A stretch of 64,000 nt of DNA from a virus: positions 1-64,000 of the IMG/VR virus record IMGVR_UViG_3300027797_000013, one strand, 5' to 3'. Below are positions 35,358-46,362 of this stretch, in pieces. The notes under the pieces are model-generated. The model did no database searches, was not told where the DNA came from, and saw only the letters and a list, made by a program, of their open reading frames with translations. Positions within the stretch are counted from its first letter, which is position 1. Every line of letters begins with the position of its first letter. The position numbers and the translations under genes are program-made.

Positions 35358-38300
35358 GTGAAAAAAATAACTCTTTTATATATAGTAGCTCTCTTATTTA
35401 CGTCAGTAGTTTGGGGAGCTGTATCCGACATAGTAGTTGGTCAACGCGCAGGTGGAAATCAAAGATTTGTACAACGAGTCGTTACCGGTACTGCAAATAC
35501 TTATAAACCAGTAGGATTCAGCAGCGATGGCACCTTCGAAGCCATATCACAGATCCGAGGAGCAACTCTTGGCACACCTGATGGTCTATCTAATATAGAT
35601 ATAACTACTAATGGAACTATAAGAATAACAGCGAACGGTACTAACTCTATTAATACATCTACACGTAAGTTGTTTAATAGCTCAGGTACAGAGACATTTG
35701 ACTGGAATAGTAATATCTTACAAGGCAATTGGATTGTAGGTGGCAGCTTTAAAGTAGGTAGTAAAATAGTAACCGGCAATGCTCTTGCTACTAATGCTAT
35801 CAACACTTCTGTAGAGCTAAATACAAAAACGGTATCTGCAAACACAACCTTTACTTTCAGCGCGACACCAGCTGTAGGTCAAGTCTTTGACCTTGACGTT
35901 AAAAATTCTGGCGGTTCTGAGATAACTATAACTATTCCCTCAAGTAAAGACGCTTCAACTGGAGCTAGTATTACGAGCCTTAATTTAATAGCTACAACAG
36001 GACGTAAGGTATTAAGTTGGAGATATGACGGTACAGACTATATTCTTACGCGTGTCGGCTCTGGTGCTGAAACTGTTTTCCCTCTTACAACGAATGTAGG
36101 CTTCGGGGGATTTAACGCCAGTAATATAGGTATTGTTACAGCTACTAACTTTGTTGGTGATGGTAGTGCAATAACAGATTTAAATGCAGCTGAACTCGTT
36201 GGCACTATACCTAGCTTGAGTACAGGACTATTAACTACTCAAAAAGCAAGAGCAGTAACACCAGTCGCTGGTGTATCTAATGTTATAGTAACAGATAACG
36301 GAGATACAACTATAACACTTAATGATGCTACTGAGACTCTTACCTACTCAAATACACCACCAGATGGAACAAGATTTGAATATACTCTAACTGGTCAGGC
36401 TACTGATACTACAGTTAATATACCTGAAACATACAGTAATGCTTTAGGTAATTTGAGATCGACTTTTACAGTTCCAGCGCTAAAGAATGCTAATATTGTA
36501 GTTAAGAGAGAAGCTGGTAGATATGTAATGTGGGGTGACCCAGTAACTATTACAGATTATCCAGCTAATACAACCCCTACTGTTGATGGTATATTAGAGG
36601 TAGATCAGAATGGAAGTACTCGTTCAACATTAGGTCAAATAAAAGCTTTAATGCTAGATACTCCAGTACTGACCGGAGGCGCATCTGTTCAAGGTATTTT
36701 AACTGCAACTACATTTAGTGGTAGCGGTGATGATTTAACTAATTTACCTGCTGACCAAATTGTTGGTACTCTACCTGACTTGGGTACTGGTATATTAACT
36801 ACTTCATCTTCTAAGAAAATCTTACCAGTAGCTGGAGTGTCAAATGCTATCAATACTGCTAACGGAGAAACTACAATTGCATTAGACGCTACAACCGAGA
36901 CTCTTTCATACTCTGCAACCCCCTCAACAGGTACATATTTTTCCTATACCCTTGAAGGTCATTCTGCAGCATCAGTAGTTACAATACCTTCAACTTACTC
37001 TTTTGCACTAGGCGGGTTTCGTACATCTTTTACTGCTCCAGCTAGTAAACCTACCTCAATTACAGTAAGAAGAGATGCAGGTCGATATATAATGTGGGGT
37101 GATCCAGTTGATATTGGAGATCTTTCTAATAATCTATCCCCTACTACGGCTGCTAAGTTAGAGATAGATCAAGGCTCAGGAAGCGAGTACATAACATTAA
37201 ATCAGGTTAAAACACTGACATCGACAAGTCCAACATTTACAGGTATTGTAACTAATTCAGGTGCTACTGCTAATACAGCAGCTGCTATGGCAGCTAACGC
37301 GATCGATGTAACACAAGAACTAAACACAAAGACAATTAGTGCTAATACTACTTTTACGTTTACCGGCACACCAGTAACTAATCAATGGTTTGGATTATAT
37401 GTTAAGAATACTGGCGGAACCGCTGTCATTGTAACTTTTCCAAATAGTAAGGATAGTGTTTCAGGAGCTAGTATTACAACATCAACAGTTACAGCTACAA
37501 CAGGTCGACAACATTTATACTGGAGATGGGACGGTACAGAGTATATAATATATAGAGGGACTGGTGACGGAACTTTATTATCAGGAGATCAAAATATTCA
37601 AGGAACGTTAACAGCTACTACTTTCTCAGGTGAAGGTACATTTCTAGATAATATACCAGGATCAGCACTAAACGGTCCGATACCAGACATTGAAGTAGAT
37701 ACTTTAACTACTGATAATGTTAGAGTTATAGTTCCAACAGCTATATCAAGCGGTACTATTGATGTTACGAAAGGGTGGTCATATAAGACTTTAACTTCTA
37801 ACCTAACAATTTCCTTTTCTGATACACCTGCCAACGGTACTATCTTATGGGTTGAGTTTATATGTGATAGTGTTGCTCGTCAAATAACTTTACCCACTGC
37901 TGTTTACTCAGATGAGAGAGGTTCTCAGGTTATAGATTTTACAGTTCAAGCTAATACCCGTCCACTTATATCGTTTATTAAATTAGCTGATGGCTGGAGA
38001 GCTCAAGGCATACCTACACAAATTAGTGATTTAGCTGCTGTTAATTCACCGGACACAACAGCATCAATAGAAATAGATCAGGGAACTGGTAGTAGAAGAA
38101 CAACTCTTGCCAACATAAAGACAGCCTTGTCTCTTGACACTAGCAGGACAGGTACTCACGCTACACCTAGTACAACAACTCCATTAAGTCCAACCTGGAC
38201 TGGACCGTCTCACACAGTTTATTATGGTGCAACTGGTACTATAAACTTACCTGCGGCTTCAGCATACGCTGATAAAGGCATTATAATTTATAATACTGGT

Positions 38301-38480
38301 AGCTTTACTATAACTGTTGATGCATCAGGTTCAGAAGTTATAGTAAGAGATGGAGCAGTACAGACCGGCGGCGTATCGTTCACTCTGTCAACCGGTGCAG
38401 GTAACTTCGTAAATCTAATATCAGACGGTATACGATGGATAACACTTGAATACAAAGGTACTTTAACACAAGGATCTTAA
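35358..38480 (+). CDS. signal-peptide-bearing multi-module fibre-like protein (1040 aa)
   Basis: MKK, hydrophobic core, VWG/A cleavage site. Five repeated ~90-aa beta-sandwich modules, ATxFxGxG...L fibre linkers, and a C-terminal TINLPAAS...SDGIRW domain. Confidence 0.75.
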   Translation: MKKITLLYIVALLFTSVVWGAVSDIVVGQRAGGNQRFVQRVVTGTANTYKPVGFSSDGTFEAISQIRGATLGTPDGLSNIDITTNGTIRITANGTNSINTSTRKLFNSSGTETFDWNSNILQGNWIVGGSFKVGSKIVTGNALATNAINTSVELNTKTVSANTTFTFSATPAVGQVFDLDVKNSGGSEITITIPSSKDASTGASITSLNLIATTGRKVLSWRYDGTDYILTRVGSGAETVFPLTTNVGFGGFNASNIGIVTATNFVGDGSAITDLNAAELVGTIPSLSTGLLTTQKARAVTPVAGVSNVIVTDNGDTTITLNDATETLTYSNTPPDGTRFEYTLTGQATDTTVNIPETYSNALGNLRSTFTVPALKNANIVVKREAGRYVMWGDPVTITDYPANTTPTVDGILEVDQNGSTRSTLGQIKALMLDTPVLTGGASVQGILTATTFSGSGDDLTNLPADQIVGTLPDLGTGILTTSSSKKILPVAGVSNAINTANGETTIALDATTETLSYSATPSTGTYFSYTLEGHSAASVVTIPSTYSFALGGFRTSFTAPASKPTSITVRRDAGRYIMWGDPVDIGDLSNNLSPTTAAKLEIDQGSGSEYITLNQVKTLTSTSPTFTGIVTNSGATANTAAAMAANAIDVTQELNTKTISANTTFTFTGTPVTNQWFGLYVKNTGGTAVIVTFPNSKDSVSGASITTSTVTATTGRQHLYWRWDGTEYIIYRGTGDGTLLSGDQNIQGTLTATTFSGEGTFLDNIPGSALNGPIPDIEVDTLTTDNVRVIVPTAISSGTIDVTKGWSYKTLTSNLTISFSDTPANGTILWVEFICDSVARQITLPTAVYSDERGSQVIDFTVQANTRPLISFIKLADGWRAQGIPTQISDLAAVNSPDTTASIEIDQGTGSRRTTLANIKTALSLDTSRTGTHATPSTTTPLSPTWTGPSHTVYYGATGTINLPAASAYADKGIIIYNTGSFTITVDASGSEVIVRDGAVQTGGVSFTLSTGAGNFVNLISDGIRWITLEYKGTLTQGS

Positions 38481-46200: not shown

Positions 46201-46362
46201 ACTGGTAGAACAGCTGATACAGCTGGTAATTTACTGCTATCAATTACTAGTGCTGCAGTAACAAATGACTCGTTGGCTACTGTAACAGTTGAAACTAACA
46301 AGCCTAAGCGCAGAGGTAACGGGGGCAAGGCCTCTGCTATTACCGGTCCTATAATAAGATAG
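43210..46362 (+). CDS. exported beta-helix protein plus second ~450-aa domain and SwmB-like C-terminal domain
   Basis: MKYLKLLFILLLVNAAQA/ATYYV (AxA site), AGDTVNIGAG, WDIGAFEY, second domain starting ITQFGITWNF...GQFANGDYWV, then DTTPP...FSENV...DTAGN. Confidence 0.8.
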   Translation: MKYLKLLFILLLVNAAQAATYYVRKDGSNTNTGAANTSAGAWLTLAKATSIAVAGDTVNIGAGDWDEALTVTAIGTATNPITFQGTGDTTVIGVTTVKGRYIHLKNYKAGPTTSLVGSFSIGDSTNVNKTAPPYGGDYCLAENITHTRISGQQLGVGDNGFFKGPIGVTIKNSRFTNPLAGNFAINFKAVDSFIVDCYFTSNTGADAITLFGYRNTIRNCKFENWSRPLGSSLHCDLFQAFTNNFEESMDHIIENNFMFNCTPGCQLGIVSDIKLTGKAGGWVFRNNVIVNQAAPFYIMTPNCKFYNNTLVRSPTEQGQQFLLYYTADRGIANNTSFYNNIFYKGGSNPAARGGGFYDKTVAGALSSSYKNQIINLLSDYNLFYGAAGAAKVSTVLSENNGNINSVNPGNPLFVNEFGINKEDYRILAGSAAIGRGVALNNLFSTDSAGTARGLTWDIGAFEYSQTTTSITQFGITWNFSEAREFGQFANGDYWVQGPVTITSMTPDWDDTTGRNGWMVNPAAPTPINGYSVGTPNYSAAARPALPLTLTSGSVIKTIGKANVLLSSIKTAAVLTVLENIPEGRGAGYFRPPYNGTAKPLNLVSSLRSDLLPGYVVPAGAPTLETIRLNFSNCLRLEHLVRSRSIRPTDAFEGNADGYQPQNTPWMNEAMLRLMGNESFQTKLPALIMFTQAALDKAYAVQQGFRSSSGDGHDPNHRIMAAWGATMLNLTDILTLMSTATGFHEDTYLYEGNNSVVLWGEPPARGELSYWDYIMGNGGGRSTKDPYFFVDGGNAVTGGTAEYQLIVSQSLKGSAIVGRLFPTLQNCFPAARWSILNRYAERWVTVGSWLSPDPVAPYDNINTNYGITFGPNLAGNRIPTAYIAGAGRGITRHGSSKDLGQYKSTFVANMWNAYSGSVTPPVVADTTPPTLSTSIINNGGNKITLTFSENVTSVNVSHYTLSNGHTLSSPVVTGRVVDMTISPVVNIKEVCTLSYATGTGRTADTAGNLLLSITSAAVTNDSLATVTVETNKPKRRGNGGKASAITGPIIR

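Follow-up and report, generated by a model that had tools for sequence, protein, structure and literature searches.

Five consecutive genes located directly behind the baseplate hub and spike genes of an uncultured freshwater T4-like phage (a myovirus) encode products with predicted export-type leaders and, judging from gene order and contig comparisons, are a genuine, conserved and fast-diversifying module of this phage lineage. The best reading of the block, which we hold with about even confidence, is a late, fast-diversifying and Sec-exported module that would bind and cut host surface glycans.

Location and integrity of the gene block

The phage is represented by a metagenomic contig (58%-complete; record length 121,642 bp) in which 169 genes were called greedily, and the window was its first 64,000 nucleotides. 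Its MCP showed at most 33.5% identity to the best isolate match, and no cultured relative was found. The T4-like label that the original prediction had given to this phage was borne out, and the ORF coordinates, the common orientation and the N-termini quoted there all agreed with the sequence. The five ORFs spanned 35358–46362 on the plus strand, with intergenic gaps of 1, 6, 3, and 39 nt. The GC content of the block (0.36–0.40) was similar to that of its flanks. The features of the region were as follows.

32813–35298, plus strand: baseplate hub/spike genes, encoding a 194-aa tape-measure-like, a 224-aa gp5-like OB-fold and a 407-aa spike-like protein (Pfam, PHROG)
35343–35348, plus strand: TAAGTA, with no other promoter-like motif in the block (sequence)
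35358–38480, plus strand: ORF1, 1040 aa, GTG start; leader residues 1–20 at 35358–35417 (sequence, homologue alignment)
37527–41047, no strand assigned: strain-variable segment comprising the C-terminal third of ORF1, ORF2, ORF3, and the start of ORF4 (contig comparison)
38482–39243, plus strand: ORF2, 253 aa; leader residues 1–21 at 38482–38544 (sequence, AF2 model)
39250–40968, plus strand: ORF3, 572 aa; leader residues 1–23 at 39250–39318 (family models, homologues)
40972–43170, plus strand: ORF4, 732 aa; leader residues 1–23 at 40972–41040, without K/R (family models, paralogy)
43210–46362, plus strand: ORF5, 1050 aa; leader residues 1–18 at 43210–43263 (family models, paralogy)
46363–47007, minus strand: ClpP-family protease gene, convergent, marking the 3′ border of the block (Pfam CLP_protease, 113 bits; PHROG phrog_94)

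The block had been placed directly after baseplate spike genes, and this position held: the gene at 33398–34072 matched Pfam Phage_base_V above the cutoff (28.8 vs. 23.8 bits), baseplate and tape-measure PHROG matches were found among the hub/spike genes, and a separate TAAATA motif stood 12 nt ahead of these genes' start at 32813. The proposed late-type motif was also present, with TAAGTA beginning 16 nt before the GTG of ORF1; the modal distance in this phage was 11 nt. This class of motif was enriched before gene starts, with 38 of the 169 starts having TAAATA and 13 having TAAGTA within 20 nt, compared with 1.0 and 0.6% of random 20-mers, and it was found before the portal, sheath, tube, and fibre genes of the phage. 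Transcription of the block probably starts from this structural-gene-type motif just upstream of ORF1. At the other end, the abutting phage clpP gene was confirmed.

An assembly chimera or a bacterial insert would be in keeping with the mainly bacterial distribution of the enzyme families and with the incompleteness of the metagenomic contig. However, the gene order dpdA-like, hub, gp5-like, spike, ORF1, and ORF2 was kept in metagenome contigs L042 and L045, which span from the spike gene into ORF1 and in which the ORF1 homologues were preceded by the same three hub/spike genes. The spike/ORF1, ORF1/ORF2, and ORF5/clpP junctions were bridged by contigs from other studies (runs X4, X5, and X6; the ORF5/clpP junction in X4 and X5), among which those from RNA libraries may be contaminating DNA. 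With both borders crossed by independent contigs and runs, synteny kept in related phage fragments and a continuous GC content, we regard a chimera or insert as extremely improbable.

In two strains, each represented by one contig (DNA runs X4 and X5), the segment at 37527–41047 was swapped for 3401 unrelated letters, and one to three enzyme genes stood behind ORF1/ORF2, depending on the relative. Together with the mosaic composition of ORF1 described below, this cassette swap and the variable number of enzymes suggest a diversification typical of surface-interaction genes.

Leaders of the five products

Signal-peptide-like N-termini had been predicted on all five ORFs. Leaders were called here with our own residue and hydropathy rules, in a strict and a loose version, and not with a trained predictor. 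The strict rule comprised K/R before an uncharged 10-mer with a mean hydropathy of ≥2.2, no acidic residue, and a small-x-small site after it. It was passed by ORF1, ORF3, and ORF5, by two genes elsewhere among the 169 of the record, and by none of 269 internal Met-started control fragments. The predicted leaders of ORF2 and ORF4 passed the loose rule only, the h-region being too weak in the former and the n-region containing no K/R in the latter; K/R stood ahead of the h-region in the four other ORFs. All five had an uncharged hydrophobic h-region of about 7–17 residues near the N-terminus, with maximal 10-residue hydropathies in the first ~30 residues of 2.82, 2.06, 3.01, 3.32, and 3.04 for ORF1 to ORF5 (ranks 7, 17, 4, 1, and 2 among the 169 genes, respectively). 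The small-x-small sites were VWG/A (ORF1), LQS/A (ORF2), LNA/A (ORF3), TLA/A (ORF4), and AQA/A (ORF5), with the less typical Leu at position −3 in ORF2 and ORF3. The predicted +1 residue was Ala in five of five ORFs and Gln in none.

Different leader sequences were found on the relatives of ORF1 (in L042, L043, and P0072–P0083), of ORF2 (in L043, L046, P0104, and P0105) and of the beta-helix proteins (in L043, L044, and L046). Allowing any start in the first 60 residues, a strict-rule leader was present in 29 of 38 homologues for ORF1, in 39 of 54 for ORF3 and, for the middle domain of ORF5, in 97 of 150 representatives. The leaderless P0046, P0047, P0050, and P0054 and the L028 protein start with M-x-x-YYVR, which is the predicted cut position of ORF3/ORF5. 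The leaders look real because the relatives keep them despite sequence divergence and leaderless homologues start at the predicted cleavage sites, and these patterns support the view that they behave like export signals. ORF3, ORF4, and ORF5 are paralogues, and therefore the leaders cannot be counted as five separate events.

The fibre cluster at 17.8–29.7 kb, with PHROG tail-fibre matches on a 1582-aa protein, had been described as leaderless. It contained no strict-rule match, and the loose rules marked a few weak, uncharged N-termini. This separate cluster could supply the ordinary fibres of the virion.

Domains of the five products

ORF1 had no sequence match in Pfam, PHROG or PDB, including no tail-fibre family model. 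It comprises a conserved N-terminal region, mosaic repeated modules of ~100 aa and a conserved C-terminal module (~930–1040). Its residues 134–230 and 621–732 had 44–54% identity to modules of two PHROG tail-fibre positive proteins, P0084 and P0089, and three of the five leaderless distant homologues that were tested had a tail-fibre PHROG match, the other two having none. The homologues ranged from 584 to 1468 aa and covered 9–100% of the query (21–99% among P0056–P0071), and among relatives a near-identical N-terminus was followed by a mosaic remainder, as in receptor-binding proteins. By its shared modules ORF1 is fibre-like, with components common to true leaderless tail fibres, and the fibre-like character proposed for the block was upheld in this respect. 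The role of ORF1 as a scaffold for the enzymes found no support. The C-terminal domain that ORF3–5 have in common is a commonplace Ig-like module, and basic tails were also found at the C-terminus of unnamed metagenome homologues and of one Verrucomicrobiales protein.

In the AF2 model of ORF2 (pLDDT 86), residues 2–20 formed a helix, which was followed by a disordered linker of low confidence and a pair of beta-sandwiches. Its C-terminal half had a weak resemblance to TNF/C1q-like jelly rolls (VIA-align Z 5–7, rmsd 2.7–3.5 over 93–100 residues, a middling likeness), including the TNF-like receptor-binding heads of Tuc2009 RBP and PRD1 P5 (Z about 6). Thirteen ORF2 homologues were found, and the relatives of both ORF1 and ORF2 were viral or metagenomic only.

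By family models and homologues, ORF3–5 appear to be beta-helix proteins of mostly secreted families. ORF3 consists of a right-handed beta-helix starting at the cleavage site, a choice-of-anchor Q cap (410–451), an Ig-like domain and a basic tail. ORF4 is a divergent beta-helix protein that has its cap at 560–603 and shares the Ig-like domain and basic tail of ORF3, and ORF5 has a beta-helix (19–465) 38% identical to that of ORF3, a second domain at 466–925 (44605–45984), and again an Ig-like domain and basic tail at its C-terminal end. NCBIfam choice_anch_Q was above the cutoff in all three; Pfam Beta_helix reached 25.8 bits against a cutoff of 25.9 on ORF5 and gave no match on ORF3 and ORF4. 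The beta-helix homologues carried precomputed PF13229, PF07602, PF22842, and PF14592, and the invariant columns of alignment A3 included D199, H227, D229, and Q232. The three polysaccharide-lyase-like proteins of the original prediction were supported as probable beta-helix proteins, with lyase chemistry as a putative activity. Beta-helix relatives were spread over very many bacterial and archaeal phyla; most homologues carried a leader, and the few organism-named ones included two proteins from Verrucomicrobiales and Lentisphaerae.

The second domain of ORF5 belongs to a large uncharacterised family, with no Pfam or PDB relative and no convincing structural relative. Relatives of it occurred in 21 mycobacteriophage records; among the 20 listed, two Redno2 records were annotated lysin A, one record a minor tail protein, and the others mostly hypothetical proteins. 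No peptidoglycan hydrolase/muramidase or other lysis domain was detected in Pfam, NCBIfam, and PHROG scans of the block. A T9SS C-terminal sorting domain was also sought: separate scans of the three C-terminal domains at E ≤ 10 yielded sub-cutoff matches to the Ig-like Big_12 and SWM_repeat models and no others, and nothing appeared in NCBIfam at E ≤ 1, in a scan that unrecognised types of this domain would escape.

Comparison with known systems and possible roles

The block had not been recognised as a described phage system, and in our literature search no paper was found discussing runs of leader-bearing phage fibre/beta-helix genes. However, such leader-bearing runs are carried by cultured Cellulophaga phages in GenBank and RefSeq. 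Phages phi10:1 (gp091–095; Assiduviridae) and phi46:3 (gp079–083; Pachyviridae) have four or five consecutive late-region leader genes, like the block, whose products are annotated structural protein, tail fiber protein or pectate lyase, and parts of this Cellulophaga block were contained in at least 34 Cellulophaga phage records. Four consecutive leader-bearing proteins of phi10:1 (gp091–094) carry the GenBank note of structural protein by MS/MS of particles, whereas the block is known here from its genes alone. By analogy, this precedent suggests that leader-bearing proteins can become part of virions or be purified along with them. The phi10:1 run precedes small proteins with hydrophobic segments, holin-like by eye. 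The Cellulophaga phages infect marine Bacteroidota and are not T4-like, their proteins have no sequence similarity to those of the block (best blastp E 0.023 in a 10-protein set), and their leaders expose Gln at +1 (10 of 10 by eye) instead of Ala. In the available text of PMC10367356, Gln at +1 of the mature protein (the Q rule) is given as a feature of Bacteroidota-adapted leaders.

The tail fibre of the cultured Acidovorax phage ACPWH has a beta-helix start motif (TYYVRTDGNDSNTG...) 57% identical to ORF3 residues 23–70, and like ORF3–5 it is a right-handed beta-helix protein encoded in a tail region. It has no leader, however, and its helix begins at about residue 178 behind a collagen-like stalk of ~175 residues that can join the particle, whereas the helices of ORF3–5 follow immediately after the leader with no stalk. 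Signal-peptide/SAR endolysins and T4 antiholin RI are likewise encoded by phages, depend on the Sec machinery of the host and have their site of action in the periplasm or cell wall, as far as the consulted parts of PMC6116005 and PMC8385771 describe them; these are lysis enzymes or small regulators, in contrast to fibre-like and beta-helix proteins of 250–1050 aa. The MAT (mosaic adhesive trimer) fibres of Bdellovibrio bacteriovorus, as outlined in PMC10769870, are phage-tail-fibre-like, with a signal peptide, a conserved domain of ~130 aa directly behind it and mosaic distal modules. ORF1 has the same described layout but is phage-encoded, whereas MATs are cellular proteins of a predatory bacterium. 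Virus-encoded beta-helix or carbohydrate-active proteins, occasionally with a signal peptide, are also on record: excerpts of PMC13452462 describe NosD-like proteins, one with a signal peptide, and those of PMC13507307 give signal peptides on 5% (3261/64,678) of prophage-encoded CAZymes. There, each is a lone gene interpreted as serving an AMG or adhesion function, whereas the present block is a conserved cassette of five genes, one of them for a fibre-type protein, behind T4-like baseplate genes.

In the glycan-acting reading that we favour, all five products would be made as Sec pre-proteins and cross the inner membrane of the infected cell, signal peptidase I would remove the leaders, and folding would take place outside the cytoplasm. 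The proteins would then target glycans of the host surface, for instance capsule, EPS or O-antigen-like polymers, with ORF1 as a modular binder of the tail-fibre type, ORF2 as a small beta-sandwich protein that may be its partner, and ORF3–5 as glycan-cutting beta-helix enzymes, to which ORF5 would add a second enzyme-like domain. Stripping or loosening of the glycan layer late in infection would favour the escape of progeny and keep them from adhering to debris and to cells already infected. If the host is diderm, Sec export reaches the periplasm only, and a route from there to surface glycans before lysis is not evident.

In the main rival reading, the products would be virion components maturing outside the cytoplasm, with ORF1 and ORF2 as a second receptor-binding fibre and ORF3–5 as depolymerases carried on the particle. 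After Sec export and periplasmic folding they would attach to completed particles once the envelope has been opened, or a fraction might escape export and assemble in the cytoplasm. The location inside the structural region behind the hub/spike genes, the fibre modules of ORF1 (46–54% identical to PHROG-positive tail-fibre modules) and its conserved N-terminus with a variable remainder suit particle components no less than free enzymes. The structural-gene-type motif, the swapping of the cassette between strains, the weak likeness of ORF2 to receptor-binding heads and the cultured precedent (phi10:1 gp091–094, with the same run in phi46:3 gp079–083) point the same way, as do the leader-bearing beta-helix genes adjoining phrog_376 tail proteins in L034 and L046 (in L046 the tail protein follows the block). 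However, tailed-phage particles are normally assembled in the cytoplasm, and no published mechanism for adding parts to them afterwards was found in the literature search. ORF3–5 have no N-terminal virion-anchor domain, the phage already has its leaderless fibres, and the Cellulophaga proteins, besides being dissimilar in sequence, may have been secreted proteins co-purifying with the particles. We consider virion parts possible, but only tentatively so.

It is unlikely that the block is captured bacterial AMG or moron cargo, that is, secreted glycan-degrading enzymes which have leaders by descent and serve host nutrition or nothing phage-specific. The wide occurrence of mostly leader-bearing beta-helix relatives in cellular phyla and the recorded viral CAZymes and NosD-like proteins would agree with cargo; on the other hand, the relatives of ORF1 and ORF2 are viral or metagenomic only, fibre-type modules are present, the GC content matches that of the phage, and the block is syntenic across the phage lineage, occupies a place among the structural genes and shows the diversification of a host-recognition locus. 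Uncleaved signal anchors, which would keep the proteins attached to the inner membrane on its periplasmic side, for example to exclude superinfecting phages or to control lysis, would be suggested by the rather long h-regions of ORF1, ORF2, and ORF4 (15–17 residues), the missing positive n-region of ORF4, Leu at −3 in ORF2 and ORF3, and the N-terminal helix and linker modeled for ORF2. The small periplasmic regulators of T4 have such N-terminal export/anchor signals in the portions of PMC6116005 and PMC8385771 consulted. However, a small-x-small site closes the h-region in all five ORFs, the first residues of leaderless homologues coincide exactly with these sites, and proteins of 570–1050 aa from secreted-enzyme families are unlike the known small exclusion and antiholin proteins, which makes this alternative very unlikely.

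The export leaders suggest that these five phage proteins work outside the cytoplasm, the compartment in which the parts of tailed phages are normally built.

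Genomic setting of the five-gene block

The record is linear, 121,642 bp long and 58% complete according to CheckV, and its first 64 kb form the window. PHROG matches of the portal, major head protein, tail sheath stabiliser and tail fibre indicated a T4-like myovirus. The major head protein shared at most 33.5% identity with that of any isolate, the best matches being cyanophages, and the lineage was regarded as uncultured because of this distance. Beta-helix relatives of the block proteins were spread over dozens of phyla (at most 37% identity over long matches) and pointed to no host.

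35358–46362, plus strand: ORF1 to ORF5, five genes separated by gaps of 1, 6, 3 and 39 nt
29816–32762, minus strand: four-gene cluster (QueF-like, P-loop kinase-like, formyltransferase-like and TGT/DpdA-like), abutting the hub genes

As originally predicted, the block lay directly after the spike genes, which comprised a tape-measure-like gene, a gp5-like gene (Pfam Phage_base_V above the cutoff) and a 407-aa spike-like gene, and a ClpP-family gene abutted its 3′ end in head-on orientation. A separate fibre cluster at 17.8–29.7 kb had no signal-peptide-like N-termini (leaders) by the strict rule given below, and looser rules flagged a few weak, uncharged N-termini in it. Three of the four genes at 29816–32762 were kept in metagenome contig L042, and the DpdA-like gene alone was kept in contig L045.

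TAAATA or TAAGTA was found within 30 nt of 55 of the 169 gene starts, and 29 of these had the motif at one fixed distance, its first base lying 11 nt ahead of the start codon; the genes with this signal included portal-adjacent, sheath, tube and fibre genes.

11998, 25253, 27565, 52084 and 61210–63865: examples of TAAATA/TAAGTA in the window

This positioning suggests mRNAs with very short or absent untranslated leaders, or a translation signal that is not of the Shine-Dalgarno type. Shine-Dalgarno-like words at positions −20 to −1 were not enriched (14 of 169 genes vs. 10% of random 20-mers). No T4-type late promoter, TATAAATA, occurred near the block, and the window held 10 matches vs. 14.9 expected. 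The scan for sigma-70 promoters and terminators did not exceed shuffled sequences (57 vs. 49.3 and 11 vs. 8.0, respectively). The TAAGTA described earlier in front of the block was confirmed 16 nt before the GTG of ORF1, an unusual spacing vs. the modal 11 nt in this phage. No such motif preceded ORF2 to ORF5, and the block therefore has the appearance of a single unit under a structural-gene-type signal.

Leaders and domain composition of the block proteins

A loose leader rule over-called, flagging 13 of 13 ORF2 homologues, two of which visibly had no leader; a strict rule was therefore used, which demanded K or R, then an uncharged 10-mer with a mean hydropathy of at least 2.2, no acidic residue, and a small-x-small site afterwards. 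It flagged none of 269 internal control fragments. The original prediction had assigned a leader to all five proteins. ORF1, ORF3 and ORF5 passed the strict rule and are predicted to carry one, and ORF2 and ORF4 failed, the former because its aromatic-rich h-region was too weakly hydrophobic and the latter because it had no K/R; small-x-small sites were present in all five. By maximal N-terminal hydropathy among the 169 called genes, four of the five ORFs ranked 1, 2, 4 and 7, and ORF2 ranked 17. Besides ORF1, ORF3 and ORF5, the strict rule flagged only 67051–67404 and a lipoprotein-like gene among the 169 genes. The latter and two further observations lay outside the window.

86605–86877 of the record, minus strand: 90-aa lipoprotein-like gene with an export-type N-terminus, the leader ending in LFSSC
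88667–89461 of the record, minus strand: canonical leader MKNKLTNIIASLLLASAPAFA from an internal start
92291–93929 of the record, minus strand: about six tandem small Gly-rich proteins of 79–95 aa, with G-[DS]-G-x-G-type repeats after a conserved N-terminal segment

For homologues, the strict rule was applied at any start within the first 60 residues, and N-termini were inspected at 11 of 31 IMG/VR loci, picked where the match was long or reached the N-terminus. Leaders were found in 29 of 38 ORF1 homologues and 39 of 54 ORF3 homologues. The count for ORF2 homologues was only 5 of 13, owing to the same weakness that makes ORF2 itself fail. Near relatives of ORF1 had an almost identical leader, and the distant ones (in contigs L042 and L043, and proteins P0072–P0083) had quite different leaders. 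Likewise, the ORF2 relatives in contigs L043 and L046 and proteins P0104 and P0105 kept a leader of different sequence, as did the beta-helix genes beside them. Five leaderless beta-helix homologues (P0046, P0047, P0050, P0054 and a protein of locus L028) began with M-x-x-YYVR, exactly at the points where cleavage of ORF3 and ORF5 is predicted. Three of the five block proteins were paralogous (identity was 38% between the helices of ORF5 and ORF3 and about 42% among the C-terminal domains), and thus the five leaders were not five independent events.

Judged from their sequences, ORF3, ORF4 and ORF5 are predicted beta-helix proteins with a putative glycan-cutting activity. The NCBIfam choice-of-anchor Q domain was above the cutoff in all three, Pfam Beta_helix on ORF5 fell 0.1 bit under its cutoff, and homologues carried beta-helix families. 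Each of the three ended with an Ig-like domain (Big_12/SWM_repeat, below the cutoff) followed by a short basic tail rich in R, K and G.

about 40930–40965, plus strand: basic tail of ORF3, right after the Ig-like domain
43120–43167, plus strand: basic tail of ORF4, in the same position
46300–46359, plus strand: basic tail of ORF5, in the same position
44605–45984, plus strand: middle domain of ORF5 (residues 466–925), a separate family of about 450 aa

Similar tails ended many homologues, mostly unnamed metagenome proteins, and other homologues ended in a P-x-G-[FY]-R-like motif. The tails may serve in sorting or in binding to acidic polymers. NCBIfam and C-terminal domain scans found no T9SS sorting domain in the block proteins.

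The family of the ORF5 middle domain comprised 1958 representative clusters at E ≤ 0.001, with a strict-rule leader in 97 of the best 150 representatives, and its conserved motifs included QFANGDYWV and GH-PGH. The domain had no Pfam match. Its AF2 model (pLDDT 93) gave no Foldseek match at E ≤ 0.001 (hyaluronate and alginate lyases headed the weak hits, at E ≥ 0.065), and the best Z in a wide VIA-align comparison was 4.7, so that no fold was assigned and no convincing PDB relative was found. Relatives occurred in 21 mycobacteriophage records, and in another phage contig (L005) a leaderless copy adjoined a lysozyme-like gene. A family of this size that has neither Pfam nor PDB relatives is worth characterising.

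ORF1 matched no family in Pfam or PHROG, and an IMG/VR search with ORF1 and with the spike protein yielded no relatives. Its homologues, of 584–1468 aa and with two alternative C-termini, covered 9–100% of the query (21–99% among P0056–P0071). Two modules of about 100 aa (residues 134–230 and 621–732) shared 44–54% identity with modules of leaderless proteins that matched PHROG tail-fibre families, and three of five leaderless distant homologues tested had a tail-fibre PHROG match. The C-terminal module was almost invariant in 14 aligned relatives. In the ORF2 model (pLDDT 86), the leader formed a helix, and a low-confidence linker joined it to two beta-sandwiches; the model had no Foldseek match at E ≤ 0.001, and its C-terminal half gave only middling matches (Z 5–7), to TNF/C1q-like jelly rolls that included receptor-binding heads of phages. 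Searches of ORF1, ORF2, ORF4 and ORF5 against the sequences of PDB chains returned nothing meaningful, and the nearest ESM Atlas clusters were viral hypothetical proteins, which serve as leads only. The complex prediction of the ORF1 C-terminal module (925–1040) with ORF2 (40–253), run without controls, gave a score of 0.00 and counts neither way. In nine linked pairs, the ORF1 C-terminus and ORF2 co-varied only weakly (36 comparisons, not independent of one another; Spearman 0.35).

Synteny and strain variation

The check on coverage and synteny came out in favour of the block: independent contigs bridged its borders, and gene order was kept in related contigs. Contigs L042 and L045 had the order dpdA-like (minus strand), hub, gp5-like, spike, ORF1 homologue and ORF2 homologue; in L044, ORF1 and ORF2 were accompanied by a single enzyme; the variants in L043, L046 and L047 differed in both leaders and enzymes. 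Among the runs listed, 24 from freshwater, lakes and sediment, belonging to 12 studies, contained the stretch, and four runs (X3–X6) were compared in detail with the window. The contigs of X3, an RNA library in which DNA carry-over is possible, showed 0 differences and bridged spike/ORF1, ORF2/ORF3, ORF3/ORF4 and ORF4/ORF5. In DNA contigs from other studies, spike/ORF1 was bridged in X5 and X6, ORF1/ORF2 in X6, and ORF5/clpP in X4 and X5. In X4 and X5, two DNA runs from other studies, 3519 nt at 37527–41047 (ORF1 C-terminus through ORF4 start) were replaced by 3401 nt of other sequence. The strain-level replacements in these two runs also included a swap of 57 nt for 69 at 34758–34816, within the spike gene.

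A chimeric assembly or bacterial insert was rejected on the basis of the synteny, the bridged borders and a GC content of 0.36–0.40, which was similar to the flanks; the mosaicism of ORF1 also excluded a chimera. Mosaicism, variable length and alternative C-termini are a habit of host-interaction loci. The block is a genuine, fast-changing phage module, and the chance that it is an artefact was considered negligible.

Tail-protein neighbours (phrog_376) adjoined leader-bearing beta-helix genes in other phage types (L046:3489–4907 and L034:2211–4961), and thus the module travels between different tail architectures. The PHROG scan of neighbours found no family at L010, L012 and L033 and only a glycosyltransferase at L022. 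Among the loci scanned, a phage structural region was supported only at L018, L024 and L034, not at L010, L012, L022 and L033.

Known systems and possible roles of the block

Two cultured marine Cellulophaga phages resembled the block in having a run of five leader-bearing proteins. In phage phi10:1 (record 41847–48878), gp091–094 had leaders and were described in GenBank as [quoted passage not shown]; a leader was also present on gp095, annotated as a pectate lyase. Phage phi46:3 (record 30343–38945) had the same five-gene run (gp079–083), some members of which RefSeq calls pectate lyase or tail fiber protein. However, Gln occupied every predicted +1 position of the Cellulophaga leaders (Q rule), which was not the case in the block, and their proteins had no sequence similarity to the block proteins. 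The cultured Acidovorax phage ACPWH had the same beta-helix start motif at about residue 178, but behind a collagen-like stalk and with no leader.

Signal-peptide endolysins, SAR endolysins and T4 RI are established examples of exported phage proteins (PMC6116005). Of the CAZymes encoded by prophages, 5% are reported to bear a signal peptide (PMC13507307), and signal peptides have also been reported for a NosD-like beta-helix protein of a virus (PMC13452462) and for Porphyromonas phage genes without a known function (PMC10367356). Bdellovibrio MAT fibres have mosaic tips and, after a leader, a conserved N-domain (PMC10769870). In the main texts searched, no paper was found that deals with leaders on tailed-phage proteins of the tail-fibre or depolymerase type.

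Two explanations were mainly considered, and their common core, that all five proteins would pass through Sec and then act on host surface glycans, is probable from the predicted leaders and domains. The first, to which we gave an even chance, is that the exported proteins would act free on these glycans. ORF3 to ORF5 have no N-terminal anchor domain, most members of their enzyme families have export leaders, and the phage has its separate leaderless fibres, all of which were counted for free action. The second, distinctly less likely, is that they are virion parts maturing outside the cytoplasm. The cytoplasm is normally where a tailed phage folds its fibres and tailspikes and attaches them to the particle. 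Maturation outside it would agree with the position of the block in the structural region, with the fibre-type modules and receptor-binding-like mosaicism of ORF1, with the tail-protein neighbours in L034 and L046, and with the structural annotation of leader-bearing proteins in phi10:1; however, this precedent is unrelated to the block in sequence. More specifically, we speculated, with slightly less assurance still, that a second, rapidly swapped host-recognition set (a tail-fibre-type protein with its small partner, and as many as three depolymerases) might be Sec-exported, folded in the periplasm and loaded onto finished particles only at or after lysis.

That the block is captured cargo was judged improbable; its gene order next to the hub and spike genes recurs in related contigs. 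That the N-termini are uncleaved anchors was rated slightly lower again; small-x-small sites follow all five, and leaderless homologues start at the predicted cleavage sites.

The block groups fibre-type with putative glycan-cutting proteins in a conserved cassette that evolves fast and is apparently built for export. Either a glycan-clearing toolkit is routinely sent across the membrane before lysis, in the manner of a receptor-destroying function, or maturation of part of the host-recognition apparatus takes place outside the cytoplasm. Loading at or after lysis, if true, would place one step of tailed-phage assembly outside the cytoplasm and, together with the Cellulophaga phages, would point to a widespread, undescribed assembly route. 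Phage phi10:1 offers a testable cultured model. Since leader-bearing genes in phage genomes are usually put down as host-derived, either answer alters the genome-based prediction of receptor-binding proteins and depolymerases.
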